A stretch of DNA of 64,000 nt from Bacteroidaceae bacterium (GTDB lineage: Bacteria > Bacillota > Clostridia > TANB77 > CAG-508): the NCBI GenBank assembly GCA_963621875.1, contig CAVFFR010000002.1:704-64703 (forward strand). The letters run 5' to 3'. Shown here in pieces: positions 617 to 29,361 of this stretch (positions are counted from its first letter, which is position 1; the number at the start of each line of letters is the position of its first letter). Below the pieces are notes generated by a model, which saw only the letters and a list, made by a program, of their open reading frames with translations, did no database searches and had not been told where the DNA came from. The translations under genes and the position numbers were made by a program.

Positions 617-1723
617 TAGAAAAAGTTGTGTAAATAAATCCTTCCGTGATAAAATATAAAATATCAAGGAGGGATTTTTCTATGGGTAAAAAAGTAGAAA
701 AAGAAAAAAATGAAATAGTAGAGGAGTTTTTTAGAAGGAATGATCCCAAAAATATTAAATCCATGAATGATATGTATGCAGCATGGAAAGATTTCTTTGC
801 CCCTGCTTTTCAACAATTGTTGGATGCTGAAATGGAATCTAAAATTGGTTATTCAAAAAATAAAAGAACATATAATACTAATTATCGAAATGGATATTAT
901 CCAGAAAGAACTGTAGCAACAGAAATGGGAGATATTCCAGTAAAAGTTCCTAGAGATAGAAATGGAGAAATTGATTCCGATTTAGTGCCTAAGTATTCAA
1001 GAACAGCAAATGGCTTTGATGAAAAAGTAATATCTATGTATGCATTAGGAATGTCTGATAAGGACATTCAAGAACAAATAAAGGAGATATTTGGCTGCAA
1101 TCTTTCACCAGATATGATAAGTGATATAACAGATAAAATTATACCTGAAATACAAGAATGGCAAAAAAGGAAATTAGAAAGTGTATATCCCTAAGACGGA
1201 ATATCAAAGATGTATAGTTCATCAAATAAGAAACTCTTTAAAGTATGTACCATATACAGATAGAAAAGAACTAGCTAATGATTTAAAAACAGTTTACAAA
1301 GCAAGTACAGAAGAATTAGGTTATACTAATTTATTAGAAATAGAAGAGAAATGGAAACACAAATATCCTGGTGCGATTCAGAGTTGGATAGACAACTGGG
1401 ATGTACTTTCAGTATTTTTTAAATTTTCAGCAGAAATAAGAAAGATAATGCATACAACAAATGCAATAGAAAGCTTAAACAGTACATATAAACGAATAAA
1501 TCGAAACAGAAATGTATTTCCAACAGACATTTCTTTATTAAAAGTGCTATATCTTTCAACGCTAAAAGCAGAGAAGAAATGGTCTAGAATGGTTGATAAA
1601 TGGGATTTATGCTTATCTCAATTTAGAATTATGTATGAAGGAAGAATATAAAATAAAGCCTAAAAATAATAGGCTTAAGAAGCAAATTTCTTAAGTCCTA
1701 TCAAATTTACACAACTTTTTCTA
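617..1723 (+). mobile_element. IS256-family insertion sequence remnant (internally deleted)
   Basis: 19-bp terminal inverted repeats: tagaaaaagttgtgtaaat at 617-635 and its reverse complement at 1705-1723. They bracket the split transposase. No matching flanking direct repeat was seen. Confidence 0.7.
646..1651 (+). pseudogene. IS256-family (Mutator-type) transposase, internal deletion plus frameshift
   Basis: ORF 646-1194 matches the IS256 transposase N-terminus. ORF 1181-1651 (+1 frame) resumes at PKTEYQRCIVHQIRNS, the C-terminal part. The segment between ...ESVYP and ...PKTE, which normally carries the first catalytic Asp residues, is missing. Confidence 0.8.
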
Positions 1724-1811
1724 AAGTATTGATTTTTTAGAAAAGTATTATTTAAATAATGTTAATAATAAAATATTAAATTTTTTCAAGTTATCAATCG
1801 GAAGGAAATCC

Positions 1812-1834
1812 GATTTACACAAGATTTTCTATAG
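1812..1834 (+). repeat. Solo IS256-like terminal repeat remnant
   Basis: gatttacacaagattttctatag resembles the right IR region aatttacacaactttttctaaag (1704-1726), about 19 of 23 positions, in the same orientation. Confidence 0.35.
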
Positions 1835-1921
1835 GCTCATATTGAAATCTTTGCTTTTATTATTGAATTAATTTTAAATTTCTTTTATATTGTTCTACTG
1901 TATACATTTTAATACAGTACA

Positions 1922-2266
1922 TCATCTCCGTTCGTTATATGGTGATGTTGTTTCATCTCCTACATCTCCATTATTATTCAAATAATATTTTTCGCATTTA
2001 TTACAATATAAATGACTACCATCGGGATGTAAAAACATTAATTTTTCATTACAATTAGGACATAGTTTTTCATTTCTATAATAATCATAAATTGTTACTG
2101 CTTCATTTCTAAATTTTGTTGTAAATTCAACATCCCATAAATTTAAGCCACGAATTGTACCATCTTTTTTATTTACATATATAGAGCCTGCTCCATCATC
2201 AAAGAACTTTTTGTTTGGCAAACCCGCTTCAAAACACCACCATTCTTCATTCTCAAGTATTTCCAT
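1922..2266 (-). CDS. Small immunity-like protein with C-terminal Zn-ribbon
   Basis: ILENEEWWCFEAG...GSIYVNKKDGTI resembles YrhB/Imm-type immunity folds. It carries CPNC...CNKC. The frame stays open upstream to 2394 without a canonical start, so the start is uncertain. Confidence 0.45.
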   Translation of the reverse strand: MEILENEEWWCFEAGLPNKKFFDDGAGSIYVNKKDGTIRGLNLWDVEFTTKFRNEAVTIYDYYRNEKLCPNCNEKLMFLHPDGSHLYCNKCEKYYLNNNGDVGDETTSPYNERR

Positions 2267-2394
2267 TATAATTTTTCCGCATTCTGATGCTTTACTTTTT
2301 GCCTTGTTTATAGCCTCATCTAATGTAATTGGTACAACAGCATTACCATTTATTGTATCATATTCATTTTCACTTGAATTATTATTTTTCTCTT

Positions 2395-3039
2395 CTATAT
2401 AATAGTATATTTATCAAATAATTCATCTACATTTGTGCATTTTATAATTTCTTTAGTAAATTCATTAAATAAATCTTTATTTGATGTAAGTTTCTTTAAA
2501 AAACTAATTTTTTCTTCTTCACTTATATTAGTCAATTTATTGAAATATTCTTTTAATAAATCTTTCCAAAAAGGATCATTTCCAATAAAAGATTCTATTA
2601 CTTTCTCTACTGTTTCTGTCATCAAATTTAAATTTTTATCATAATCATAATTACATTTACTACAATTATATATAGGACTATCCTCTCTTAATTCACAACC
2701 ACCTGCAATATATTTATTTGTATCAATTTCTCCTTTAATTTTTCCATAAATATATTCTTTTAAAATCGAATAACATTTTGGACATCTAATTTTTTCTTTT
2801 TCATTTAATTCAAAACCTGTTGTTTTTTTATTTTTTAATAACTCCTCTATTACACTTATTTCTGTTCTTACATTTTCTATACAGTTATTATCATCAATTT
2901 GTTTGTCTATTTCTTCTTGTCTTGCTTTTTTCAATTCATCTGAAGATAAATATTTTTGTAAAGCTTCTAGCTCTCTTTCTAATTCATCTACTGAATAATC
3001 TTTATATTTATTAAAATATATACCTGGTCCTATAGCCAT
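2395..3039 (-). CDS. Hypothetical protein, coiled-coil N-terminus plus CPKC...CSKC Zn-ribbon
   Basis: 214-aa ORF located 29 bp downstream of the ART toxin gene. It has two CxxC pairs. No recognisable family. Confidence 0.5.
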   Translation of the reverse strand: MAIGPGIYFNKYKDYSVDELERELEALQKYLSSDELKKARQEEIDKQIDDNNCIENVRTEISVIEELLKNKKTTGFELNEKEKIRCPKCYSILKEYIYGKIKGEIDTNKYIAGGCELREDSPIYNCSKCNYDYDKNLNLMTETVEKVIESFIGNDPFWKDLLKEYFNKLTNISEEEKISFLKKLTSNKDLFNEFTKEIIKCTNVDELFDKYTII

Positions 3040-3068
3040 TTTCTATCGCTCCTTTTTAATATTATTTT

Positions 3069-4553
3069 TTATAATTCCATACCACCCATATCCATTACAG
3101 GCTGTTGTGGGACTTGTCCTTGTATCATTTGGGCATCACCTTGTTCTTGATTTTGCTGTTGTGTTTGAGTTTGCTGTGATTGTTGTTCCTGTTGTTCTCT
3201 GTGTTTCCTTGCAATTTTAGCACTTTCTCTCTGTATTCTAGCTTTCTCTTCTGGTTCTAATTCCCATGATTTCTTTTCTCCTGTTTTAGTTTTTGTATTT
3301 GGTTGTTGTCGATCTAGGTAAGTTGTATCTTGTGTTCCATCATTTCTTCCTCTAGAAAATCTTGATCTCATTTGATTAAAAAATCGTGAAAATCTATTTT
3401 GCCTAGCAGGTAAATTTTCTAAATTTCCGTTTTGTGAATATGTTTGTTGTTGTATCGTTTGGTTATACAAATTATCACTTTCTGTTTGTGTAGAAAAAGA
3501 TTTCTCATAACTATTGTTTTTTTGTTTTGTTGCTTGTTGTCCTATATCTTTATAACATTCTCTTTCTTTACTTAATAATAAACCTTGCAATACAGTCTTA
3601 CTTTTTCCATTTTTATCAATAACTCCACTTTGAGCTCCAACTACATATATATCATTTGGATTTAATAAAACTTCTTGTTCTACACTATCATAATCTGATA
3701 ACTGCGCTATGTATGCTCCTTGAGTTCCTTTTGGAGCATATATTTCCATAACAGTATCATATTCATCATATTTTGCAAAAGAAGATTCATATAATGGAGA
3801 TGTACTTGTATACCCTTTATTATTCATACTTTTTCCAACATAACTTTGCATATCTACTTGATCATTTGTTTTAATTGCTCTATACAATTTCATTGATTCC
3901 GGTAATCTTGCTTTAGACAACCCTTCATCTAAATTTGAAATTGTCTCATCTATATGTTCAAATGAATTCATATCTTTTACAGCTTTACATACTGATGGAG
4001 AACAACCTCTTGGCAAATTCATTTCTTGCATATATGAATTTATAATGTCATAATTATTGTAAACTGGTTTATCATAATCTAGTTGTTGTATGACATTACT
4101 AATTTCATATATCTGACTTTGACTCATTCCTCTTTCTTGAAGTTTAATTGATAAATCTTGCATAATTCCACTTTGTAATTCTGTTCTAGTTATTGTCCCT
4201 CTTTTTACTGATAAAATCATATTACTTCCGTTGCTATATTGATTAATAGCTTTTGCATTTTCTACTGATATGTTATATGAATTTATAGTATCCATAAATC
4301 CTTGTATTTCTGATTGATTTACTCCTATTTGTGGTAATTCTTCCATAGTATATCCATCAGCTAATCCTTGCAATACTTTTTGATGATTTCCACTTGAACT
4401 AAATACATCTGTTAAATCAGCTTCATTTTGAAATGTAGAATAATTACCATTTAATATTTCATTTATATTTGACTGTGATAATCCTTGGTTTTGTAGCATA
4501 TTTGTTATTTGTTGCTTTTGCGTTGATGATATTTTTAATTGTTCAATCTCCAT
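3069..4553 (-). CDS. ADP-ribosyltransferase (C3/exoenzyme-type R-S-E toxin domain) with Gln-rich C-terminal tail
   Basis: The catalytic triad pattern is readable: LYR (Arg), GYTSTS (STS motif), EQEVLL (ExE). The upstream AINQYSNGSNMILSVKRG resembles the conserved N-terminal helix of C3-like ARTs. There is no signal peptide. The last ~150 aa are Q/R/E-rich low complexity. Confidence 0.75.
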   Translation of the reverse strand: MEIEQLKISSTQKQQITNMLQNQGLSQSNINEILNGNYSTFQNEADLTDVFSSSGNHQKVLQGLADGYTMEELPQIGVNQSEIQGFMDTINSYNISVENAKAINQYSNGSNMILSVKRGTITRTELQSGIMQDLSIKLQERGMSQSQIYEISNVIQQLDYDKPVYNNYDIINSYMQEMNLPRGCSPSVCKAVKDMNSFEHIDETISNLDEGLSKARLPESMKLYRAIKTNDQVDMQSYVGKSMNNKGYTSTSPLYESSFAKYDEYDTVMEIYAPKGTQGAYIAQLSDYDSVEQEVLLNPNDIYVVGAQSGVIDKNGKSKTVLQGLLLSKERECYKDIGQQATKQKNNSYEKSFSTQTESDNLYNQTIQQQTYSQNGNLENLPARQNRFSRFFNQMRSRFSRGRNDGTQDTTYLDRQQPNTKTKTGEKKSWELEPEEKARIQRESAKIARKHREQQEQQSQQTQTQQQNQEQGDAQMIQGQVPQQPVMDMGGMEL

Positions 4554-4733
4554 ATCTTTCTCTCTTTCTTATCTTTTGAGCTTCGTTTCATTTATTCTAA
4601 AAACATTTATTACATTTTTTTATAATTTTCAATAGTTTAAAAATATTTTTATTAAAAACCATTATCTAGTAACTTTGAATTCTTTATATATATATATTGC
4701 CTCAAATAAATATAATTCAAGACATTTTTCTAA

Positions 4734-4755
4734 TTTTGCAACCACGGTTGCAAAA
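4734..4755. promoter_or_regulatory. Perfect palindrome TTTTGCAACC-AC-GGTTGCAAAA (possible operator)
   Basis: 10-bp perfect arms with a 2-bp spacer. It lies between the TnpV remnant and the ART gene, just upstream of a possible TTGAAT-17-ATATAT minus-strand promoter. Confidence 0.35.
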
Positions 4756-4823
4756 TTATCAAATGTTCTTTATTTCTTCATAATATATCATATAATTCAA
4801 ATTTTTTCCATTACTTTTTAAAA

Positions 4824-5218
4824 TTAAATATATATCATTTCTTTTAATACTATTTCTTCTGCTCCATTTTTAATATTATTCATTCTTGCAACCCACTCTA
4901 ATTGATTATTTGCCTTTAGTTCTTCTGTTACATTTTCTTGTTCTGTCATTTGTTTTATTAAAATATCTAACTTTTCTTTACATTCATCTTCAATATTTAG
5001 TAAATAACTTTTCAATTTATTATTTAATAACATTTCTGTATATTCTGGTATTGTATATTTCTTCATATAGTTTAGTTTTAATCTACCATACTTTCCTATA
5101 TTTTCCGTTCTTCTAGCCTTTGGTATTGTTATATTAGGTATATAACAATTTCCAACTAATCTATATTCAATTCCTGTTCTTTCATCTCAAATTTTTCTTT
5201 TAATACTTTATTTTCCAT
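4824..5218 (-). pseudogene. TnpV-like transposon protein, frameshifted near the N-terminus
   Basis: The ORF 4824-5066 tail QMTEQENVTEELKANNQLEWVARMNNIKNGAEEIVLKEMIY matches TnpV. Upstream, MENKVLKEKFEMKEQELNID stops, and the family-typical LVGNCYIPNITIP...IGKYGRLKLNYMKKY continues in another frame. Confidence 0.6.
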
Positions 5219-5263
5219 AATTTTAAATTCTCCTTTTTCTATTAATTATTAATTTTATTTTTA

Positions 5264-5438
5264 CTAAATTATTGCTAGGAGGAAACCTTTGTTATTACTA
5301 AATTTTACTTTTTCGTCATAAGAGAATATTATTGTTACAACTAGTGCTATTAATGTTATTCCGCTTTTTACTTTCTATCATTCTTATTCTTCCTTCTTCT
5401 TTCGTTTCTTCTAACTTTTTAGTGTTTTCTTTCTCCAT
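5264..5438 (-). pseudogene. Remnant of a type-IV-pilin-like gene (paralogue of 13693-14901)
   Basis: ATG 5436-5438 with an AAGGGG SD gives MEKENTKKLEETKEEGRIRMIESKK. After a frameshift the sequence reads KSGITLIALVVTII, the same G/ITLIALV prepilin-like N-terminus as the intact genes, and is then truncated. Confidence 0.55.
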
Positions 5439-5465
5439 TTTATTCCCCTTTCCATTTGTATATTT

Positions 5466-5705
5466 TTATTATGAAACAATATGTTTTATAAATCAACTAG
5501 TACTTTTGTTTTTATTAAATATGTAATTTAATAAAAATTAGAATCTTCCACAGTTCTTTTTGTTCTAAGTAGTGTCAGATTATCAGTCTTTCTTTCGTCT
5601 TTGTTTTTTTTATTTTTTAGTATTGATTTTTCCTTACAGCTATGCTATAAATAAAAGTAGTTGATTTTAATTAAATTACATATTTAATTAAAATTTTTTT
5701 TACAA
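5466..5705. repeat. Copy 1 of a ~235-bp control module (collinear with 14965-15197)
   Basis: Same architecture as copy 2. Minus promoter: -10 at 5468-5473, -35 at 5491-5496. Palindrome A at 5512-5534. Plus promoter TTGATT-17-TGcTATAAA at 5623-5651. Palindrome B at 5667-5691. The A-B gap is 132 bp in both copies. Confidence 0.7.
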
Positions 5706-5710
5706 ATACA

Positions 5711-5750
5711 AAAACTAACTTACCATAATCTCATCTGTAAGTTAGTTTTT
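5711..5750. terminator. Bidirectional intrinsic terminator (after tspO)
   Basis: AAAACTAACTTAC-loop-GTAAGTTAGTTTT, with T-runs on both strands. Confidence 0.6.
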
Positions 5751-13017: not shown

Positions 13018-13554
13018 TTATAATGTTTTTGCACTCTTTGTTTTCTCTGCTTCATTTCCAGCTACATCTGTAACAACTACTTTTATTTGGTAAGTTGTAT
13101 TAGGTTTTAAATTTTTAAACTTATATTCTTTTTCTGTTGTTACTTCTGATGTTACAGTTTCTGTTTCATTTGTTGCTGTGTATATAATAGTGTCTATTCC
13201 ACTTTCTTCTTCTGTAACACTTATCTGTACCGTTATGAAATTATTTGTAATTTTGGTGATAGTTATTTCATTTATTATTGGTTCTGTATTATCTTCACTA
13301 TGTAATACTCCATCTTCTATTGTTTTTTCATCTTTTTTTAAATCTTCTATTTGTTGTAGTCCTTCTTGTTGTGCTTGTTCTATATTTGTTTGGGTATCTC
13401 TTGCTTCTTTTACTATTCCTTTGTTGCCAAAACCAGATTTTACTGTTATTCCCGCTAAAATCATTGTAACAACAATGGTTATTACTAGTGCTATTAGCGT
13501 TATTCCTTTTTCATTCTTTCTTGCAATGCTATTTTCTTTTTTTATCTTCTGCAT
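13018..13554 (-). CDS. Type-IV-pilin-like protein with C-terminal fibronectin-III-like domain
   Basis: Basic leader MQKIKKENSIARKNEKG, then ITLIALVITIVVTMILAGITV (a class III signal-peptide shape, but Ala at +5). The C-terminus ITITKITNNFITVQISV...LKPNTTYQIKVVVTDVAGNE looks like FN3. Confidence 0.65.
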   Translation of the reverse strand: MQKIKKENSIARKNEKGITLIALVITIVVTMILAGITVKSGFGNKGIVKEARDTQTNIEQAQQEGLQQIEDLKKDEKTIEDGVLHSEDNTEPIINEITITKITNNFITVQISVTEEESGIDTIIYTATNETETVTSEVTTEKEYKFKNLKPNTTYQIKVVVTDVAGNEAEKTKSAKTL

Positions 13555-13692: not shown

Positions 13693-14901
13693 TTATCTTG
13701 GCCATACTCCCATATTTATTTCTTTACCATATGTTTTATCATCTTTTATTATTATTATCACTTGGTCAGTACCTGCGATATCATCTTCACAGTGAGTTTT
13801 TCCTAGTTTTATCAAATAGTCTGCAATACTTTCAGAACGCAAATAATCATATGTTTCAGAATGTTCTATAGTTTCTGTTATATTTATTGTCTCATTGTTA
13901 TATATTATATATGCTTTTTCAAATGTTGTTGATATATTAGTATCTGCATTCTGTAATAATATAATAGCATTGGTGGGTTCGTCTAGTTCTCTTACTATTT
14001 TATATGTATTATCAGCACTAGCTTCAATATTGTTTACTTCTACTTTTTTAGTATATGTTTTACCTGTTACTAAATCTTGTACTTTAAATGTATATGTGCC
14101 ATTTTCTGTTGCTACATATGAATTGGAGATTTCATTGTCTGGATTTGCTACATTGTAAAATTCTATAGTTTCAGTATCCTTATTATAGTACATGTCAAGT
14201 GATTCAAACAAGATTCCGTTTAGTCCTTCTTCACTTGTTTCTACTGCCGTCCAGAAAGCATCTTCTGTTGCCTCTGAAATTATTCCTCGTTTTTCGGCCC
14301 AATCTAATGCATCTTGAAATGTTGTGCAATTATTTACCACCTTCATATACGCATTTCTAATTATTTCTTTCTTTTTGTCTTCACTTAGTGAATTTATAAA
14401 ATTATTAAGTTCTTCTTCTTCTTTTGCTATTGTTGTCAGTCCATCTACAGATGTCACTTTTAGTAATACCATTGACGATTTGTCTGTATCTGATATTTCT
14501 ATCTCTATTTTGCTTTTACTAATGTTTATTGTTACACTACTATAACTTATTTCTTTTACTATACTTCCATCTTTTTTCTTTATTATAATTAGTTCTTGTT
14601 CTCTATCTATTTCGTCCTCTGTTAGTAGCTTTCTAGAAATTAGACTGGCTAGAACTGTATCTGCACTTTCTTGTGCTTGATTTGATTCTTTTTTTATAAA
14701 ATTGCTTTGTTTCCATAGTCCTATTTCATCTTCTACCTGTGATGCCCTTGTTTCTAATCTAGCATCTTTAGATTTTCCTATAATACCATTATTGTCTAGT
14801 ACTAAGCTTATGCTTACTCCTGCTAGTATTAAAAGCACTACAATTGTTACCACTAATGCAATTAGCGTAATTCCTCTTTTATTTTTTAATTTTTGATTCA
14901 T
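13693..14901 (-). CDS. Type-IV-pilin-like protein (402 aa)
   Basis: MNQKLKNKRG/ITLIALVVTIVVLLILAGVSI prepilin-like N-terminus (Ala at +5), followed by a large non-repetitive extracellular part. AGAGAGG SD. Confidence 0.65.
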   Translation of the reverse strand: MNQKLKNKRGITLIALVVTIVVLLILAGVSISLVLDNNGIIGKSKDARLETRASQVEDEIGLWKQSNFIKKESNQAQESADTVLASLISRKLLTEDEIDREQELIIIKKKDGSIVKEISYSSVTINISKSKIEIEISDTDKSSMVLLKVTSVDGLTTIAKEEEELNNFINSLSEDKKKEIIRNAYMKVVNNCTTFQDALDWAEKRGIISEATEDAFWTAVETSEEGLNGILFESLDMYYNKDTETIEFYNVANPDNEISNSYVATENGTYTFKVQDLVTGKTYTKKVEVNNIEASADNTYKIVRELDEPTNAIILLQNADTNISTTFEKAYIIYNNETINITETIEHSETYDYLRSESIADYLIKLGKTHCEDDIAGTDQVIIIIKDDKTYGKEINMGVWPR

Positions 14902-14967
14902 CTTTTTCCTCTCTTTCTTTGGTATTTTAGTGTTTTTTTACACTCCTTTTTCTTTTAGTATGTCATT

Positions 14968-14996
14968 ATTATAAAACATTATGTTTTATAAATCAA
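14968..14996 (-). promoter_or_regulatory. Sigma-A-type promoter TTGATT-17-TATAAT for the pilin-like gene, with a palindrome in the spacer
   Basis: Minus strand: -35 at 14991-14996, -10 at 14968-14973. The spacer contains the perfect palindrome ATAAAACAT-T-ATGTTTTAT (14971-14989). Confidence 0.55.
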
Positions 14997-15120
14997 TGTT
15001 ATTTAATTTTTTATTAAATATGTTATTTAATAAAAAATCTTAGATGCCGAACTGTCTTATTCTCTAAGGTTATACTGTTTATATGTGTTTATTACTTTTA
15101 TAATTTTTTGTTTTATACTA

Positions 15121-15150
15121 TTGACTTTTTTCTTACAGTTATGCTATATA
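15121..15150 (+). promoter_or_regulatory. Outward-facing extended -10 promoter TTGACT-18-TGcTATATA inside the module
   Basis: Conserved in copy 1 (TTGATT-17-TGcTATAAA). It points away from the pilin gene, toward palindrome B and a hairpin. Confidence 0.5.
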
Positions 15151-15212
15151 TAAAGATAGTTAGTTTTAATTAAATAACATATTTAATTAAAACTATTTTC
15201 TATCAACATATT

Positions 15213-15264
15213 AAAGTGGTAAGATAAAAATAGATACCAAAGTCTGCTTTTATCTTACCACTTT
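15213..15264. terminator. 17-bp perfect stem-loop downstream of the outward promoter
   Basis: AAAGTGGTAAGATAAAA-18 nt-TTTTATCTTACCACTTT. Confidence 0.45.
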
Positions 15265-15976: not shown

Positions 15977-16051
15977 GCAAAAAGTCCTCTTATCAAACAT
16001 ATAAGAGGATTTTTTATCTAATTTTAATTGAATTCATTGAATCTATTAATT

Positions 16052-16754
16052 CTATTCTTCTTGGAATTCCTTTCCCAATTTATTTATTGCTTTTGTTTCT
16101 ATTCTTGACACATATGAACGAGATATTCCCATCATATCAGCAATTTCTTTTTGTGTTTTTGGTTTACCTCCTTCTAATCCAAAACGCAATTTAATAATTG
16201 TTCGTTCTCTATCTTTTAAAACATCCTTTACTTTCTGATAAAGTTTCTTAATTTTTATTTTTAAATCGACTTCATCTTCTATATTTTTATCATTACTTTC
16301 TATTACTTCTTTAAGTGTAACTGTATTATCATCCTTGTCTTTTCCAATTACATCTTCTAAGTATACTTCTGCTCCGATGTTTTTTAGTTGTTCTTAGATA
16401 CATTAATATTTCATTATCTATACATCTTGATACATATGTTGAGAGCTTTGTTCCTTTATTTACTTTAAAGCTATTTATTCCTTTTATTAATCCAATGGTA
16501 CCAATTGAAATTAAATCTTCTTGATCTACATTAGTGCTAGAATATTTTTTTGATATATGAGCAACTAATCTTAAGTTTCGTTCAATTAATATATTTTTAG
16601 CTTCTTCATCTCCATTTTCCATTTTCTTTAGATACATTTTTTCTTCTTCACTGCTTAATGGTTCTGGAAATAAATTATTACTCGCTATATATCCAATTGC
16701 AAATACTGATGTTTGTAAAAAAGCTAAAAAACCCGTTAATGAGATGGTAAGCAT
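16052..16754 (-). pseudogene. sigK: Pro-sigma-K (sporulation sigma factor) interrupted by a +1-nt frameshift in an A6 run
   Basis: N-terminal part: MLTISLTGFLAFLQTSVFAIGYIASNNLFPEPLSSEEEKMYL...ERNLRLVAHI...DLISIGTIGLIKGINSF...KGTKLSTY...CIDNEILMYLRTTKK. After the T6 run at 16380-16385 (plus strand) the sigma sequence continues in another frame: NIGAEVYLEDVIGKDKDDN...RTIIKLRFGL...TQKEIADMMGISRSYVSRIETKAINKL, ending at TAG 16052-16054. Confidence 0.8.
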
Positions 16755-16783
16755 TGCAAGCACCTCCATTTCTTGCTATACCA

Positions 16784-23633: not shown

Positions 23634-24371
23634 ATGAGAACTGTTATGAATGACAAAGAAGAATTAAAAAAAGCAGTACTAGAAAGTTGTATTAATGGAA
23701 CTATGACAGTTAAAGTCGCAGCAGACAGGTTGAATTTTTCAGAGTGCTATGTAAAAAAATTGAAAGCGAGGTATAAAAAATATGGTGCTTCATCCATGAT
23801 GCATGGAAATTGTGGAAAACAACCTAAACACACTATTAGTGCTGATATTAAAAGTAAAATATGGGAAATTTGGAATATTTCAGAACTTGAAGATGGTTTT
23901 ATTGATGATGCTACTCATCAAGTAACTGGCTTGTATATGTGTGAAAATGAATGTATGCATGGATATTTAGAAGTAACTAGACAAACATTTAAAAACTTTG
24001 GTGTACCTTTAGCTCTTTATGCTGATGGCTCTAGTATTTTCTTTCCTAAAGATAAGAAATTAACAATAGAAGAGCAATTAGCAGGTATTACTGAGCCAAC
24101 CACCCAATATGGTAGAATGATGAAATTTTTAGGTGTAGATTTAATTCATGCTGGCTCTTCCCAAGCTAAAGGAAGAGTTGAAAGATTATGGAATACTTTG
24201 CATGATAGACTTAGAACAGAATTTAGAAGATACAATATTACAACGATTGAAGAAGCAAACAAATTCCTTAAAACATATATTCCAAAATTTAATAAAAAAT
24301 TTGCTATTGAGCCTAAAATTAAAAAAACATCTTTTATGGAATTACCAGAATATGTCATACTAATTTTGTAA
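23634..24371 (+). pseudogene. rve-type DDE transposase (ISNCY-like), internally deleted and truncated
   Basis: N-terminal HTH, then an abrupt junction ...ISELEDG/FIDDATHQ. The SQAKGRVERLWNTLHDRL motif is present. The protein is much shorter than intact relatives. Confidence 0.55.
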
Positions 24372-24397
24372 ATTTTTGTAGGGATAGGAGGGGTTTT

Positions 24398-24622
24398 ATG
24401 ACTTTGTTAGATGCAACAAGAAAAAGAATAGATGAACTATGCAAAATAAACAATATGAATATAAATCAACTAGCAATAGCTTCTGGAATTAATCCCTCAA
24501 CTATAAGAAGTATTTTCAAAGTTATTAGAAAAGCTCCATCTTCTGATACAATTTATTATATATGTATTGGTTTTGGAATTTCTATAAAAGATTTTTATGA
24601 TAGTGAATTATTTGATGATTAA
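24398..24622 (+). CDS. XRE-family helix-turn-helix transcriptional regulator
   Basis: The INQLAIASGINPSTIRSI HTH pattern; 74 aa; AGGAGGGG SD. Confidence 0.7.
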   Translation: MTLLDATRKRIDELCKINNMNINQLAIASGINPSTIRSIFKVIRKAPSSDTIYYICIGFGISIKDFYDSELFDD

Positions 24623-24740
24623 AAGAGAATGATAAAATATTAAAATTTTACCATTCTCTTTTAGTTTTCAATAAAGTTCATTCAAAGGGTCATTCAAAAG
24701 TTCATTTTGACCTTTTGAAGTTTTGAGTAATAAATTCATT

Positions 24741-25061
24741 TTAAGCTACTTTTATTCCTGTATTAATTACTTCTTTTATGAAATAATCTGACTCTTCTTC
24801 AAAATCTTTCTTTTTAATTGGGTGTGGTTCTATTCTAGCATCTATGTCCCATGTCATTCCCATTAAATTCGCCATACATTCATATATATCTTCAAAATCA
24901 TCAGAAATTATTGCAATATCAATATCACTATCTTCATTTTCAGTTCCTTTTGCATAAGAACCAAATAATATAATTGCTGTTATATTATAATGTTTTTTAA
25001 TTTCTTTTATAAACTCATTTATGCTATTTAAAATTTCTTTATTTATTGTTCTTTCAGCCAT
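24741..25061 (-). CDS. Minimal nucleotidyltransferase (MNT) antitoxin-like protein
   Basis: LFGSYAKGTENEDSDIDIAI, a GS-x10-DxD nucleotidyltransferase motif. Confidence 0.75.
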   Translation of the reverse strand: MAERTINKEILNSINEFIKEIKKHYNITAIILFGSYAKGTENEDSDIDIAIISDDFEDIYECMANLMGMTWDIDARIEPHPIKKKDFEEESDYFIKEVINTGIKVA

Positions 25062-25433
25062 TTTCTAACCTCCTTAATATTTTCTATTTGCTCGGTTGTA
25101 TATTCATCAGTACATTTTTCTTCAAAACTCTTTTTGTAATCATCATATCTAGCACTAATATTAAAAGTATTTATTACTTGTATTCTTTTTCTTATTTCTT
25201 CTGGTACTTCTAAATTAGCCTTTTTGTGAAAGCAATATTAAGTTATGAATTTTAGGTGCTATTGGATTTTCTTCATTACTTCTAGCATATAATCCTTTTA
25301 ATAATTTTTTAACTACTAAATGACCTAAAAATAAACACCATGTATTCTTTTTATTTTTGTATAATACTTCCATTGTCTCGTAATCACTATCAGAACTTTC
25401 AAACCAGTAATTCATTAAATCTATATTATTCAT
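25043..25433 (-). pseudogene. HEPN-domain toxin-like gene, frameshifted
   Basis: ORF 25215-25433 ends at ...LLSQKG*. The natural continuation KANLEVPEEIRKRIQVINTFNISARYDDY...VRKWLKEQ lies in another frame after the A5 run near 25215-25220. Its stop overlaps the MNT start. Confidence 0.6.
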
Positions 25434-25501
25434 AATTTATCATTCCTTCCACTATTATTATAAAAATTTTTTTTCAATATATTAAATTAAAATAAAAACA
25501 A

Positions 25502-26349
25502 TCATTTATCACACAATTTACAAGCAGAATATCCATTGTTTATAAGATTTTTTTCTTTTGTTGTAATTTCTTTTATGTATTTAGGGTCAACATTATTTAA
25601 TACCTTGCAATTTTCTATATGATACTTCTTTGTTTGTGAATTGACTACTAAATCTACATTTTTACTTTGTATTCGTTTCTTTTCTTCTATTGATGTTTTT
25701 ACTCTTTGTATTGGTTTTATAATACCACGATTGTCTTAATTATACTTCCATCACTATATTTAAACTTAACCTTTTTCTTAATATTATAACAAAATCTACA
25801 AAGTGTAAACTCTGTATTTAAACTTTTGGCTTCTATTAATATTCCTGTTGGAATTTGATTTTTTCCCTTATATATTGGAGTTACTCTATACAAAATTTTT
25901 ATGTATTTTTTACTATTTTCTTTAATATATTGTTCTACATCATTTTCAATATCATTCATAATCTTTTTGTTTAAATCATCTGTTCCTATAAATATATTGT
26001 TTTTATCATTCTTTTTAGCTGATAACCTATAAGCAATGCAATGACATCTTTGGAATATTCCAGAATCATTAATTTTTTCTGTCCAACCATGTGGATCAGG
26101 ATATTTTAAATGTTTTTCTACCATTATTTATAAAGTATATTCACTAATTATTGCTATTGCACCACTTGTTCTATTTAATTCATCTGGTTCAAAATACTTT
26201 GGAATTCCTTCTGTTATTTCAAAATCTGCTTTTTTAAAGAAGGGGTTATTATTATTTACTACAGGTGAAAAATCTTCTATTTTGTTAATATCTTTATTTA
26301 AAAATTCATTTACAATTTCTTCTCTATTTTTCATTTTTACCTCTTTCAC
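25502..26349 (-). pseudogene. EndA/NucA-like nuclease broken into three pieces (in-frame stop plus frameshift)
   Basis: 26128-26349 (...ELNRTSGAIAIISEYTL*) and 25717-26124 (...GIFQRCHCIAYRLSAKKNDKNNIFIGT...) are in the same frame, separated by TAA 26128-26130. A C-terminal KKYHIENC...GYSACKLCDK module (25502-25716) lies in a third frame. Confidence 0.65.
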
Positions 26350-26379
26350 TGTTTTCTTCTAAATCTTCTAATTTGTTTT

Positions 26380-26811
26380 TTACACTTTTTTTATAGAATC
26401 TTTTACATAGTCCACTTCTTCTAAATATTCACCATCTAATATTGGAACATAAAAAGCACCTACTTTATGATTTGCTTCTTGAAGTTCTTTTTGTGTTACA
26501 TTTGTTCTAGTAACATCTCCATCATAATAGTCTATATAATATTTATTATCTTTTTCATCATAATTAACATGTAGAAATTCTGTGTCATATGAATATTCCA
26601 ACATAGAATCTTTTATTATATCTTCTAATCTGTTTTGATATTTAGGTGCTAATTCTAATTCATTATATATTTCATCATAAAAATTTTTATCTATTGATAT
26701 TTTACTTTTAGGATTCTCTAAAGAATTTCGTAATTCATTTATAAAATCGTTGATACTATTATCAACCTCTTTAGTTCTTGTGTTAATTTCATTATTTAAT
26801 AATCTGTCCAT
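26380..26811 (-). CDS. Hypothetical acidic protein
   Basis: 143 aa with no recognisable motif. Lies between island cargo genes. Confidence 0.4.
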   Translation of the reverse strand: MDRLLNNEINTRTKEVDNSINDFINELRNSLENPKSKISIDKNFYDEIYNELELAPKYQNRLEDIIKDSMLEYSYDTEFLHVNYDEKDNKYYIDYYDGDVTRTNVTQKELQEANHKVGAFYVPILDGEYLEEVDYVKDSIKKV

Positions 26812-26916
26812 TTTCCTCCTTAATATCTTTTAATTATTTTTAATTTTTATTAGTTAATCAATAATATATCACATTCTTTATAGTATTTCCATAAATTTAC
26901 ATAAATTTTACAAATA

Positions 26917-27540
26917 TTATTTATTTTCCTCTAACCATTTATAAACTTCATCTTCTGCAAGTTTGCCTTTTTTCATTTTATTTACTTTATCTTTAGCATC
27001 TTTTTTCCATTTTTCAAATTCTTTTTGAATTACTTTTACATCTTTATTTCTTTGTGCTATCATAAATTTTTGCCTATAGATTCTTCTATAAAGAGCTTGT
27101 GTTTCATTATTCTCTAAATTTTTCTTATATTGTTCATTTGCTCCTTTTTCTCTACAAGTAGGGCTTTGGTCTGGATTTGCTAAATCGCAATATATTTCGT
27201 TTTGTCTGTAACTTGGTATAAAATATCTGCCACAGTTTAAACAGGTCTTAATTTGCAAATTCTCGTGTCTTACCACTTGATCTAATATTGCAAAACACAT
27301 ACTTGTTAATTTTGTACTTGTATAAAAATTATGGGGTTCTAGTTTAGAATCTTTGTTATTTATTCTTTTTATTAATTCTTGCATTGTTTCATTATGATTA
27401 TGATTATGTATATTTATGTAATTATCTGTTATAATTTCAATATCTTGTGAATATGTATAAAACTCGCTATCTCTTATGGTATAGGCTACAAATTTAGCAA
27501 GTTTATTTTCTTCGCCTTTTAGTTCTTCATTTCCATTCAA
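26917..27540 (-). CDS. Hypothetical Cys-rich protein (CLNCGRYF...YCD...PTC); 5' end unresolved
   Basis: The track start is TTG. The frame is open for 79 more codons, up to 27777, with coding-like sequence but no ATG/GTG/TTG, and it overlaps the integrase start. Confidence 0.45.
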   Translation of the reverse strand: MNGNEELKGEENKLAKFVAYTIRDSEFYTYSQDIEIITDNYINIHNHNHNETMQELIKRINNKDSKLEPHNFYTSTKLTSMCFAILDQVVRHENLQIKTCLNCGRYFIPSYRQNEIYCDLANPDQSPTCREKGANEQYKKNLENNETQALYRRIYRQKFMIAQRNKDVKVIQKEFEKWKKDAKDKVNKMKKGKLAEDEVYKWLEENK

Positions 27541-27756
27541 ATTATATACAAAATCTACACATTTTTTAAAATTATCTTGCCACTCAATAAATGTGTAGCT
27601 ACCAGTTTCAAATATATCTTTTATAATTTTTCTAAAATTAATATCATCAATATAATCATCATTTTTAAAATAATCATTTGGTGCATAATCTTTTACTAAT
27701 TCATAACCATAAGCATAAAAGTAATTCGGTAATATGTCAATAGAAAGGAGTAAAAA

Positions 27757-28935
27757 ATGATAGATGTAACAGGTAGCTTACAAATTAAAAATAAAATATA
27801 TCAAGCAGTTTTAAGTTATAAACAAGATAATAAATGGAAAACAAAATGGGTTTCAACTAAAGTTCCAGCAGTAAAAGGAAATAAAAAACAAGCACAAGCA
27901 AAACTAGAAGAAATTAAAAAGAACTTTCAAGAAGAATTAAACAAGACAAATATTGATGATGAAGATATGATATTCATAGATTATATGAAGAAATGGCTTA
28001 ATAGGCAAAAAGCAAGTATTGAAGAAACAACATATATTGGTTATCACGGTGCTATATACGGAAGAATGACTGATTATTTTCAAGCTAGAAAAGATATTAC
28101 ACTACAAACTATTAAACCAAAGCATATACAAGATTTTTATCAATATTTATTAGATAAAGGACTTTCTGGAAACACAGTAAAACATTATCACGCAAATATT
28201 AGAAAAGCTTTACAATATGCTATGAAAACAGATATTATTCCAACTAATCCTGCTGATAAAGTTGATTTACCAAAAATTGAAGAATACAATCCAAATTTCT
28301 ATACAAGTGATGAAGTTAAAACATTACTTAATGAAGTTATTGGAACAAAATTAGAAATTCCTGTAATGATAGATTGTTTTTATGGCTTTAGGCGAGGCGA
28401 AGTAATTGGTTTAAAATGGAGTACTATTGATTTTGAAAAAGACACTATTACAATAAATCATGCCATTACACAATCTAATGGAAAATTGATCATAAGAGAT
28501 AAAACAAAAACAAAATCTAGTAAAAGAACTTTACCTTTAGAGCCTATTGTAAAATCTTTCTTACTTGAATTAAAAGAAAAGCAAGAAAAGAATAAGGAAC
28601 TATGTAGAAATAGTTACAATCAAGAATATTTAGAATATATATGTGTTGATAATTGTGGTAATCTTATAAGACCAGACTATGTAACAGAAACATTTTTGAA
28701 ATTATTAAAGAAAAAGAATTTAAAACAAATTCGTTTTCACGATTTAAGACATACTTGTGCAAGTATTCTTTTAAAGAATGGTGCAAATATGAAAGAAATA
28801 CAAGCATGGCTTGGACATTCAAATTATAATACTACTGCAAATTTATATGCACATTTAGATACAAGTAGTGTATGTAACACAGGAAAGGTAATAACAAATG
28901 TATTTAGTGAAAAAAATGAAGTAACCACTGCCTAA
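27757..28935 (+). CDS. Tyrosine recombinase / phage-type integrase
   Basis: N-terminal arm-binding-like region. C-terminal catalytic pattern GFRRGEV...HDLRHTCASILL...LGHSNYNTTANLYAHL (R, H-x-x-R, Y). AAAGGAG SD. Confidence 0.85.
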   Translation: MIDVTGSLQIKNKIYQAVLSYKQDNKWKTKWVSTKVPAVKGNKKQAQAKLEEIKKNFQEELNKTNIDDEDMIFIDYMKKWLNRQKASIEETTYIGYHGAIYGRMTDYFQARKDITLQTIKPKHIQDFYQYLLDKGLSGNTVKHYHANIRKALQYAMKTDIIPTNPADKVDLPKIEEYNPNFYTSDEVKTLLNEVIGTKLEIPVMIDCFYGFRRGEVIGLKWSTIDFEKDTITINHAITQSNGKLIIRDKTKTKSSKRTLPLEPIVKSFLLELKEKQEKNKELCRNSYNQEYLEYICVDNCGNLIRPDYVTETFLKLLKKKNLKQIRFHDLRHTCASILLKNGANMKEIQAWLGHSNYNTTANLYAHLDTSSVCNTGKVITNVFSEKNEVTTA

Positions 28936-29007
28936 CTGCTCCAAATTTTTTAGATGTTTTTTTAGATGCTACTAAAAAAATGCTATTTTTTAGTGCAAAT
29001 TGTTGTT

Positions 29008-29083
29008 TGGTGGCTTCAAGTGGAATCGAACCACTGACACGGAGATTTTCAGTCTCCTGCTCTACCAACTGAGCTATGAAGCC
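29008..29083 (-). tRNA. tRNA-Phe (GAA), CCA encoded
   Basis: Reverse complement: GGCTTCATAGCTCAGTTGGTAGAGCAGGAGACTGAAAATCTCCGTGTCAGTGGTTCGATTCCACTTGAAGCCACCA. It folds as a cloverleaf with anticodon loop CTGAAAA. Confidence 0.9.
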
Positions 29084-29092
29084 ATAAGTTTG

Positions 29093-29139
29093 CACCAAAG
29101 ATTTTCAGTCCTTTGCTCTACCAACTGAGCTATCAAGGC
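29093..29139 (-). pseudogene. 5' fragment of a second, diverged tRNA-Phe (GAA)
   Basis: Reverse complement: GCCTTGATAGCTCAGTTGGTAGAGCAAAGGACTGAAAATCTTTGGTG. This covers the acceptor 5' arm, D arm and anticodon arm. It then breaks off 9 nt before the intact tRNA-Phe; no T arm is present. Confidence 0.75.
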
Positions 29140-29164
29140 AATTATTCAATTTTAAATAAAAAAA

Positions 29165-29241
29165 TGGCGACCTGGAACGGGCTCGAACCGTCGACCTCTA
29201 GCGTGACAGGCTAGCGTTCTAACCAACTGAACTACCAGGCC
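29165..29241 (-). tRNA. tRNA-Asp (GTC), CCA encoded
   Basis: Reverse complement: GGCCTGGTAGTTCAGTTGGTTAGAACGCTAGCCTGTCACGCTAGAGGTCGACGGTTCGAGCCCGTTCCAGGTCGCCA. Confidence 0.9.
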
Positions 29242-29285
29242 GTAAATAAAAAAATTTAGAATGTTCTAAATTTTCTTATAAAGAA

Positions 29286-29361
29286 TGGTGGTCGCTATAG
29301 GGCTCGAACCTATGACCCCCTGCTTGTAAGGCAGATGCTCTCCCAGCTGAGCTAAGCGACC
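29286..29361 (-). tRNA. tRNA-Val (TAC), CCA encoded
   Basis: Reverse complement: GGTCGCTTAGCTCAGCTGGGAGAGCATCTGCCTTACAAGCAGGGGGTCATAGGTTCGAGCCCTATAGCGACCACCA. Confidence 0.9.

Follow-up and report, generated by a model that had tools for sequence, protein, structure and literature searches.

A candidate invertible promoter cassette upstream of pilin-like genes in a low-GC Clostridia genome and the family of modules to which it belongs

Pilin-like genes and the module upstream of them

The 64,000-nucleotide stretch of contig CAVFFR010000002.1 analyzed herein (hereafter, the window) is a Clostridia chromosome segment with a GC content of 28%, carrying radA, disA, spoIVB, spoVA genes, groEL, and ftsK. 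Upstream of two pilin-like genes on its minus strand lies a short module, composed of a pair of inverted repeats bracketing a predicted promoter, which is described here as a candidate invertible promoter cassette (inverton). The first of these genes (13693-14901, minus strand) encodes a 402-residue protein with the N-terminus KRGITLIALVVTIVVLLILAGV, the N-terminal 32 residues of which resemble geopilin, and the second, located downstream (13018-13554, minus strand), encodes a 178-residue pilin-like protein with an FN3/Ig-like domain. The product of the first gene matched the Pfam family N_methyl at E = 1e-3, below the curated cutoff, the scores for this family being 19-21 bits as compared with the Pfam cutoff of 21.2, and the leader motif G|ITLIAL has Ile at +1 and Ala rather than Glu at +5 of the type IV pilin pattern (G|F-T-L-x-E). 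One homologue is named 'type II secretion system protein' at NCBI, and the Pfam scans of the open reading frames (ORFs) of the window listed no pilus-assembly family (one of these scans showing 25 of its 70 families). The pilin-like proteins have only the N-terminal leader and helix in common, their C-termini being unrelated (FN3/Ig domains, PARCEL repeats, and WVWIPRYAY repeats). Full-length homologues were common in the ENA metagenome assemblies searched; exact-protein look-ups of the 402-residue protein and of TspO gave no match.

The two repeats of the module are exact copies of the 19-mer ATTAAATATGTTATTTAAT, one proximal to the pilin-like genes (repeat A, 15013-15031, plus strand) and the other proximal to the promoter (repeat B, 15169-15187, minus strand). 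Repeat A lies within a 33-bp palindrome (15006-15038) of a 15-3-15 layout and repeat B within a 35-bp palindrome (15161-15195) of a 16-3-16 layout, and the asymmetry of both sites is confined to the central three nucleotides (TGT/ACA; TGT at 15021-15023 in repeat A). An initial annotation of this DNA had noted an inverted 19-mer pair in two sites (15011-15033 and 15166-15190) lying 132 bp apart. These limits proved correct, being slightly wider than the common 19-mer, and the spacing, counted from the wider sites, is equivalent to the 137 bp that separate the 19-mers and constitute the putative invertible interior (15032-15168). Only four exact 19-mer sites were present in the window, belonging to this module and to a second one, whereas the expectation from shuffled sequences was 1.9 even with up to three mismatches allowed. 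Both modules thus consist of a short segment between exact 19-bp inverted repeats, with 137 bp between the 19-mers and 156 bp from centre to centre.

The interior carries a predicted promoter (15121-15150, plus strand) composed of a -35 element TTGACT (15121-15126), an 18-nt spacer, and an extended -10 element TGcTATATA (15142-15150, with TG at 15142-15143 and TATATA at 15145-15150). As the initial annotation had noted, it is directed away from the first pilin-like gene, an orientation referred to as OFF. Transcription from it would be expected to start at around 15157, roughly 10 nt before repeat B. Beyond repeat B, a strong hairpin (15212-15264, plus strand; -27.1 kcal/mol, z = -9) without a U-tail, which had also been annotated, probably blocks or insulates transcription in the OFF orientation. 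Outside the putative switch, between site A and the gene, a fixed sigma-70-type promoter (TTGATT-17-TATAAT; 14968-14996, minus strand) was recovered by a promoter scan at the position previously assigned to it, together with a palindrome in its spacer (14969-14991). This spacer palindrome (TAAAACATAATGTTTTA; TWTAAAACRTAATGYTTTATA) is conserved across diverged homologous flanks, which implies a bound factor, possibly a repressor, acting separately from the switch.

The second module comprises repeat A' (5514-5532, plus strand; ATTAAATATGTAATTTAAT), repeat B' (5670-5688, minus strand; the same 19-mer inverted), and a putative invertible promoter (5623-5651, plus strand; TTGATT-17-TGcTATAAA), which likewise points away from its gene (OFF), a terminator-like hairpin lying beyond it at approximately 5710-5750. 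When the two modules were aligned, conservation was evident in the repeats and in both the interior and the fixed promoter, with divergence in the rest of the interior, in good agreement with the equal spacing and diverged interior noted previously. The proposed compensatory change of the repeat centre (atgtT/Aacat in the main module, atgtA/Tacat in the second) was also borne out, in that a single T-to-A central change is present concordantly in both repeats. The pilin-like gene of the second module (5268-5440, minus strand) is decayed, being frameshifted and truncated after the hydrophobic helix, and its intact orthologue is found in a metagenome contig (L016). In this module and in its orthologue L003, the pilin-like genes are frameshifted in or beside A-runs (approximately 5330-5345 in the window) just before the GITLIAL-coding stretch, which is intact in L016; these frameshifts may represent a layer of homopolymer slippage, or plain decay.

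The module family and the orientation of its promoter

Related modules were collected with the pattern TAAATATGNNATTTA-N126-156-TAAATNNCATATTTA from one genome per GTDB species and from metagenome contigs. The GTDB scan gave seven loci, of which a single Hadza-gut Clostridia metagenome-assembled genome (MAG) accounted for five and a goat-omasum Clostridia MAG and Clostridium sp. CAG:780 for one each, and the metagenome-contig scan gave 34. The cassette promoter was present in 36 of the 41 matches, so that, with the two window copies, 38 promoter-bearing modules were available; the five others (L011, L025, L033, L034, and L043), which have neither the promoter nor a pilin-like context, were taken as chance matches to the pattern. 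Further pairs of the 19-mer, which the initial annotation had suggested looking for, are accordingly found well beyond the window. An additional 13 loci, fetched via exact copies of two pilin homologues, were all OFF and carried the arm variant ATTGAAT.

The architecture of these modules was highly uniform. The motif TTGNNN-N13-16-TGnTATAWW, its spacer being 17 or 18 nt, occurs in all 38, approximately 18 bp from one repeat, so that at the sequence level every module has a predicted promoter reading out through one of its repeats; the distance from the end of the -10 element to the end of the proximal 15-mer is 35 nt, or 34 nt in the case of L008. In an alignment of 19 modules, conservation was limited to the repeats, with their T- and A-tract shoulders, and the promoter. 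The repeat consensus is TTTTWATTAAAT-ATGTW-ATTTAATWAAAA, and the centre-to-centre distance is 154-156 bp in nearly all modules. Beside nearly every module lies a gene for a protein that begins with a basic stretch and continues with G-I-T-L-I-A-L-V-V-T-I-V-V-L-L-I-L-A-G; there are two copies of the module in the window and at least six in a related MAG, each before a gene for a pilin-like surface protein. The ribosome-binding site (RBS) lies within approximately 12-17 nt of the repeat in L007, L008, and L030/L040 as well as on either side of L006, and since this leaves no room for another promoter between the repeat and the RBS, these genes appear reachable from the cassette promoter only. In most modules, a terminator-like hairpin lies beyond the promoter-proximal repeat and would stop transcription in the OFF state.

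Taken together with the orientations described below, these features make it very probable that the 137-bp segment 15032-15168 is an invertible promoter cassette. In the proposed mechanism, a site-specific recombinase encoded outside the window would synapse both 19-bp repeats, and strand exchange within their asymmetric centre would flip the segment. In the OFF state, as seen in the window, the cassette promoter would fire rightwards through repeat B into the strong hairpin, away from the pilin-like operon, whereas in the ON state it would lie approximately 18 bp from repeat A and read through this repeat into 13693-14901 and 13018-13554. The activity of the promoter, the recombinase as well as its class, the reversibility of the switch in a clone, and the effect of the ON and OFF states on expression are parts of this mechanism that we infer. 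Modules present in multiple copies would yield combinatorial phase variation of surface proteins.

The orientation of the promoter was scored relative to the pilin-like gene. In the first count, over the 38 promoter-bearing modules, the promoter faced away from the gene in 23, including both window copies, and into the gene in five (L012, L017, L041, L026, and L040); pilin-like genes were located on both sides in one (L006), and the flank was too short for scoring in nine, including L010, which was placed as ON because it is paired with L013. The overall tally amounted to 37 OFF, six ON, one toggle, and eight modules of unassigned orientation with OFF-type arms. For three of the ON modules (L010, L026, and L040), an OFF version of the same locus was identified, the flanks being collinear and the breakpoints falling within the 19-bp repeats. 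Between L010 and L013, the flanks are identical (46/46 on the pilin side, 250/250 on the other), while the modules match at 166 of 170 positions only as reverse complements; in direct alignment, the identity ends exactly after ...ATTAAATATGTAATTTAAT and returns at ATTAAATTACATATTTAAT.... The flanks of L026 agree with those of L027 and L014 at 246/250, 211/226, and 239/249 positions, and the interiors align as reverse complements only. Similarly, L040 and L030 share one flank (233/248), with interiors that match as reverse complements (134/139). Both orientations with unchanged flanks and breakpoints in the repeats are hence observed in homologous loci, though not at the window copy itself, in good agreement with the invertible promoter, drawn in the OFF orientation, that had been proposed for this site. 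The pair L017/L041 and L039 was also considered as a same-locus comparison and was rejected, the flanks being only 62-80% identical.

The half-sites provided an additional line of evidence. The nucleotide just outside the 19-mer is T...A at site A (type a) and A...T at site B (type b), and the OFF modules combine these as a/a' and b/b', whereas the ON modules L026 and L010 are hybrid (b/a') at both ends, which is the pattern predicted by a crossover inside the 19-mer. As for sequence divergence, the interiors of L026 and L027 are 77% identical as compared with 93-98% in the flanks, and L010 and L013 differ by four transitions in the 170-bp module as compared with no difference in 296 bp of flank; interiors would thus appear to evolve, or to be replaced, faster than flanks.

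Several observations weigh against an invertible cassette. The orientation is strongly skewed to OFF (37 versus 6), and the two orientations always came from different samples, in no case from a single sample or read set. The half-sites of the other ON modules deviate from the expectation in one arm of L040, one arm of L017/L041, and two arms of L012, although these deviations fit point polymorphism that is also present in the OFF module L005a. The promoter is predicted from sequence, its -10 element ends in A in most copies, and for this reason a consensus promoter scan omits the interior promoter of the main module. Furthermore, a good fixed promoter separates the switch from the gene in many loci, including that of the window, and OFF may therefore not mean silent. 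The fixed element occurs in approximately 13 of 23 distinct pilin-side flanks and is clearly absent from five, and its precise deletion in L030 relative to the orthologue L005b indicates that it is dispensable; an earlier remark that control may be layered was fair. Finally, motif scans and phmmer searches of all ORFs of the window and of the flanks of the module loci gave no invertase.

The skew to OFF, the occurrence of both orientations across samples only, and the want of an identified invertase would also be expected if the inversions were rare accidents of homologous or replication-slippage recombination at short inverted repeats rather than a programmed switch. We regard this as improbable, because flips occurred in at least three loci between strains 94-100% identical in their flanks, repeats of 19 bp are poor RecA substrates, and diverged modules retain the repeats, their spacing, and the place of the promoter, with variation elsewhere in the interior; the concordant core changes described below further imply selection for matching partner sites. 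Mis-orientation of a short segment during assembly is hardly conceivable as the source of the flips. Inverted repeats can indeed confuse de Bruijn assemblers at small k, but metaSPAdes and MEGAHIT finish at a k longer than the perfect common repeat of only 19-25 bp, and the ON contigs derive from different studies and assemblers and bear their own point differences as well as the predicted hybrid half-sites.

The initial annotation had offered two alternatives that leave the DNA static, and both fare worse than an invertible cassette, as neither explains the flipped interiors. In the first, as worked out here, sites A and B are operators of a dimeric regulator that loops the 156-bp segment over a divergent promoter pair, with no programmed inversion. 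Their long, nearly perfect palindromes (33 and 35 bp) are typical of dimer operators, and the difference of 10-11 bp between the common spacing (154-156 bp) and that of L006 (145 bp) corresponds to about one helical turn; such phasing is, however, expected equally for recombinase synapsis over a short loop. Since static operators would explain neither the flipped same-locus interiors with breakpoints in the sites, nor the hybrid half-sites of the ON copies, nor the genes without a promoter of their own, nor the matching asymmetric centres, this alternative appears very unlikely. The second, which we consider slightly less likely again, is a divergent small RNA, put here at approximately 60-110 nt and consisting of the promoter, the B hairpin, and the terminator, that acts on the pilin-like mRNA and for which the repeats serve as structural elements of the RNA or DNA. 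The B palindrome following the promoter does fold at -12.4 kcal/mol and precedes a terminator-like hairpin in most modules. Nevertheless, the stretch from B to the terminator shows no conservation, an Rfam search at the module matched no family, riboswitch, or small RNA, and site A as well as the flipped interiors would be left without a role; moreover, in L006, L012, and L026 the same promoter reads straight into the pilin-like gene.

Two further loci bear on the behavior of the cassettes. L006 contains three sites within 4024-4266 (site 0, 4027-4043; site 1, 4104-4120; site 2, 4249-4265), of which site 0 abuts a divergent gene for a PARCEL-repeat pilin-like protein, and sites 1 and 2, spaced at 145 bp and hence one helical turn closer than usual, bracket the promoter. 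The cassette promoter reads through the proximal site into a second pilin-like gene, and L006 is a probable two-gene toggle or mini-shufflon, in which inversion would redirect the promoter to the other gene. In addition, the cassettes L012:3193-3363 and L005:7310-7480 (L005a) are 95% identical (162/171) despite lying in different loci and in opposite orientations relative to the gene, which suggests cassette exchange or a recent duplication between switches.

Putative crossover cores and the search for a recombinase

The central pentamer of the repeats is ATGTT in nine modules and ATGTA in 28, and a third core, ATATA, is present concordantly in both repeats of L005:4452-4621 (L005b), the orthologue of which (L030/L040) has ATGTA; ATATA also occurs at two locus edges. 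The cores of the two repeats agree in 38 of 39 complete modules, the exception being L016. The 95%-identical cassettes of L012 and L005a likewise differ in their cores concordantly in both repeats. The covariation, noted initially as a single case between the two window modules, accordingly recurs in independent comparisons (L005b versus L030; L012 versus L005a), and there are at least three separate concordant double changes of the core, while partner sites are free to differ at the shoulder position just beyond the 19-mer. Concordant cores with free shoulders would be the pattern expected if strand exchange needs identical overlap regions.

Tyrosine-recombinase switches have overlaps of 6-8 bp that are identical in the partner sites, and serine invertase systems such as Hin, Gin, and Mpi have a 2-bp central crossover and often an enhancer. 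In the present family, the site centre is odd in length (3-5 bp) and is not the 2-bp dyad of serine invertase sites; the dyad passes through a base pair, as a 7-bp overlap would allow. An asymmetric core of odd length, together with the apparent need for identical cores, suggests a tyrosine recombinase, which would presumably be encoded in trans, outside the window.

The serine or tyrosine invertase that the initial annotation had proposed to search for did not emerge as a dedicated enzyme in the window or the module loci. The phmmer queries were the integrase of the window and a Hin sequence; neither the latter nor a motif scan brought up a serine recombinase in the window or the loci, where the enzyme need not be encoded. 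The sole recombinase detected in the window is a 392-residue tyrosine integrase (27757-28935). It was rejected as the invertase, since homologues 82-88% identical to it end a mobilisable element with the order Mob_Pre - DUF6076 - HTH_17 - integrase; such elements are inserted in different chromosomal contexts, and none of these loci has the 19-mer repeat. The surrounding region (23634-29361; 24% GC) is a remnant of an integrative mobilisable element containing a transposase fragment, an endonuclease fragment, and a truncated DUF6076 gene (206 residues as compared with approximately 370 in intact copies), and three tRNA genes (29011-29361) adjoin the integrase. Intact relatives in other genomes (L044-L051) carry Mob_Pre and cargo such as Fic/Tad4 or a sigma factor.

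On the basis of copy number and cores, a broader interpretation may be ventured, namely that the modules form a genome-wide, addressable inverton regulon in uncultured low-GC gut Clostridia, in which one trans-acting recombinase serves at least six cassettes per genome with three incompatible cores. We hold this to be possible but rather doubtful. Under such an arrangement, the incompatible cores (ATGTT, ATGTA, and ATATA) would keep neighboring switches apart, as in the case of the two window modules, which lie 9.5 kb apart and have different cores. Cassettes would still be swapped between loci, as for L012 and L005a, and toggles of the L006 type would select one of two pilin-like genes. Combined with a fixed promoter under regulation of its own, such a system would give rise to combinatorial, layered variation in a large pilin-anchored family of surface proteins.

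Some other contents of the window are recorded here. Downstream of the second module, the region 646-5440 contains a split IS256/Mutator transposase (646-1651), a 494-residue protein with an ADP-ribosyltransferase exoenzyme domain and a Q-rich tail (3069-4553), a TnpV fragment (4824-5066), and two zinc-ribbon-like ORFs, and has the appearance of a mobile insertion carrying a toxin gene, by which the original pilin-like gene was displaced. A sigK-like sigma factor gene (16000-16769, minus strand) is frameshifted at an A-run: the ORF 16329-16769 stops after region 2 (...RTTKKHRSRS*), and the remainder (IGAEVYLEDVIGKDKDD...) continues through region 4 in another frame. The same shortened gene call (141 residues) is present in the independent Logan contig L001, and the frameshift may reflect a pseudogene, a slippage site, or an assembly error common to both. 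L001 (SRR13434692) is the sole other assembly of the genome of the window, and its position 1 corresponds to 15163, at the outer edge of the site-B palindrome. That it starts at a de Bruijn branch arising from mixed orientations was considered and rejected, as such a branch is predicted at 15168/15169.

Significance and comparison with known switches

In gut Bacteroides, the inversion of promoters is one of the chief ways in which the surface varies; in Clostridia, to our knowledge, it has been surveyed far less, above all in the uncultured lineages. The modules described herein would constitute a sequence-defined inverton family, characterized by a repeat consensus and a cassette promoter, that is tied to a large pilin-like family with variable C-terminal domains. 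The consensus allows per-locus ON/OFF ratios to be scored easily in metagenomes, the family points to a missing trans-acting invertase, and the coexistence of several cores makes it possible to ask, in a natural setting, how switches present in many copies escape recombination with one another. The initial reading, made from the letters of the DNA alone on the grounds of inverted repeats, a covarying asymmetric core, and an outward promoter, appears to have predicted the switch correctly.

Among well-characterized systems, the fimS switch of the type 1 fimbriae of Escherichia coli, which is inverted by the tyrosine recombinases FimB and FimE, resembles the present module in that the invertible element carries the promoter of a pilus or fimbrial subunit gene and reads away from it in the OFF state. 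It is a single-copy element of 314 bp with 9-bp repeats and adjacent recombinase genes, in contrast to the multi-copy 137-bp segments with 19-bp repeats and no adjacent recombinase found here. In Bacteroides fragilis, polysaccharide promoters are inverted under the control of the global serine invertase Mpi, and many cassettes of similar size in one genome share a repeat consensus, each serving a different surface-structure locus, as in the present family. The phylum and the repeats are different, the targets are capsules rather than pilin-like proteins, and three core variants coexist here; moreover, Mpi is a serine recombinase, whereas the odd site centre of the present family would fit a tyrosine recombinase better.

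Clostridioides difficile has switches operated by the tyrosine recombinase RecV, including those of flgB (approximately 154 bp with 21-bp imperfect repeats) and cwpV. These share with the present modules a host within the Clostridia, a short intergenic segment (approximately 140-200 bp) that is bounded by repeats of about 20 bp and precedes surface-structure genes, the presence of several switches in each genome, and a recombinase encoded elsewhere (presumably so in the present case). They have unrelated repeats, whereas the modules here belong to one repeat family with a cassette-borne sigma-70-type promoter at a fixed position, and the cwpV and flgB switches act largely via termination in the leader RNA, whereas the present module carries a promoter.

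Inverton groups of Clostridia have been catalogued by surveys of the PhaseFinder type (PMC11892184, PMC11602134), and one of them, group 139, was linked to tyrosine recombinases (PMC11892184). Like the present modules, the catalogued invertons form intergenic families with common repeat motifs near cell-surface genes; the examples described there (PMC11892184) come from strains in culture, Clostridium sp. D5 among them, and have 25-bp repeats around an interior of approximately 206 bp, whereas the hosts here are MAGs of uncultured low-GC Clostridia. The repeat sequence itself was found in the searchable text of papers only as a chance match in a Drosophila paper. Considering these comparisons, the design of the candidate switch, an inverton, is already known, and the repeat family appears to be new, its hosts being uncultured. 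Overall, by analogy, the module is closest to the RecV switches of C. difficile in host group, size, and putative trans-acting recombinase, and closest to the Mpi regulon of B. fragilis in possessing many cassettes of one family.

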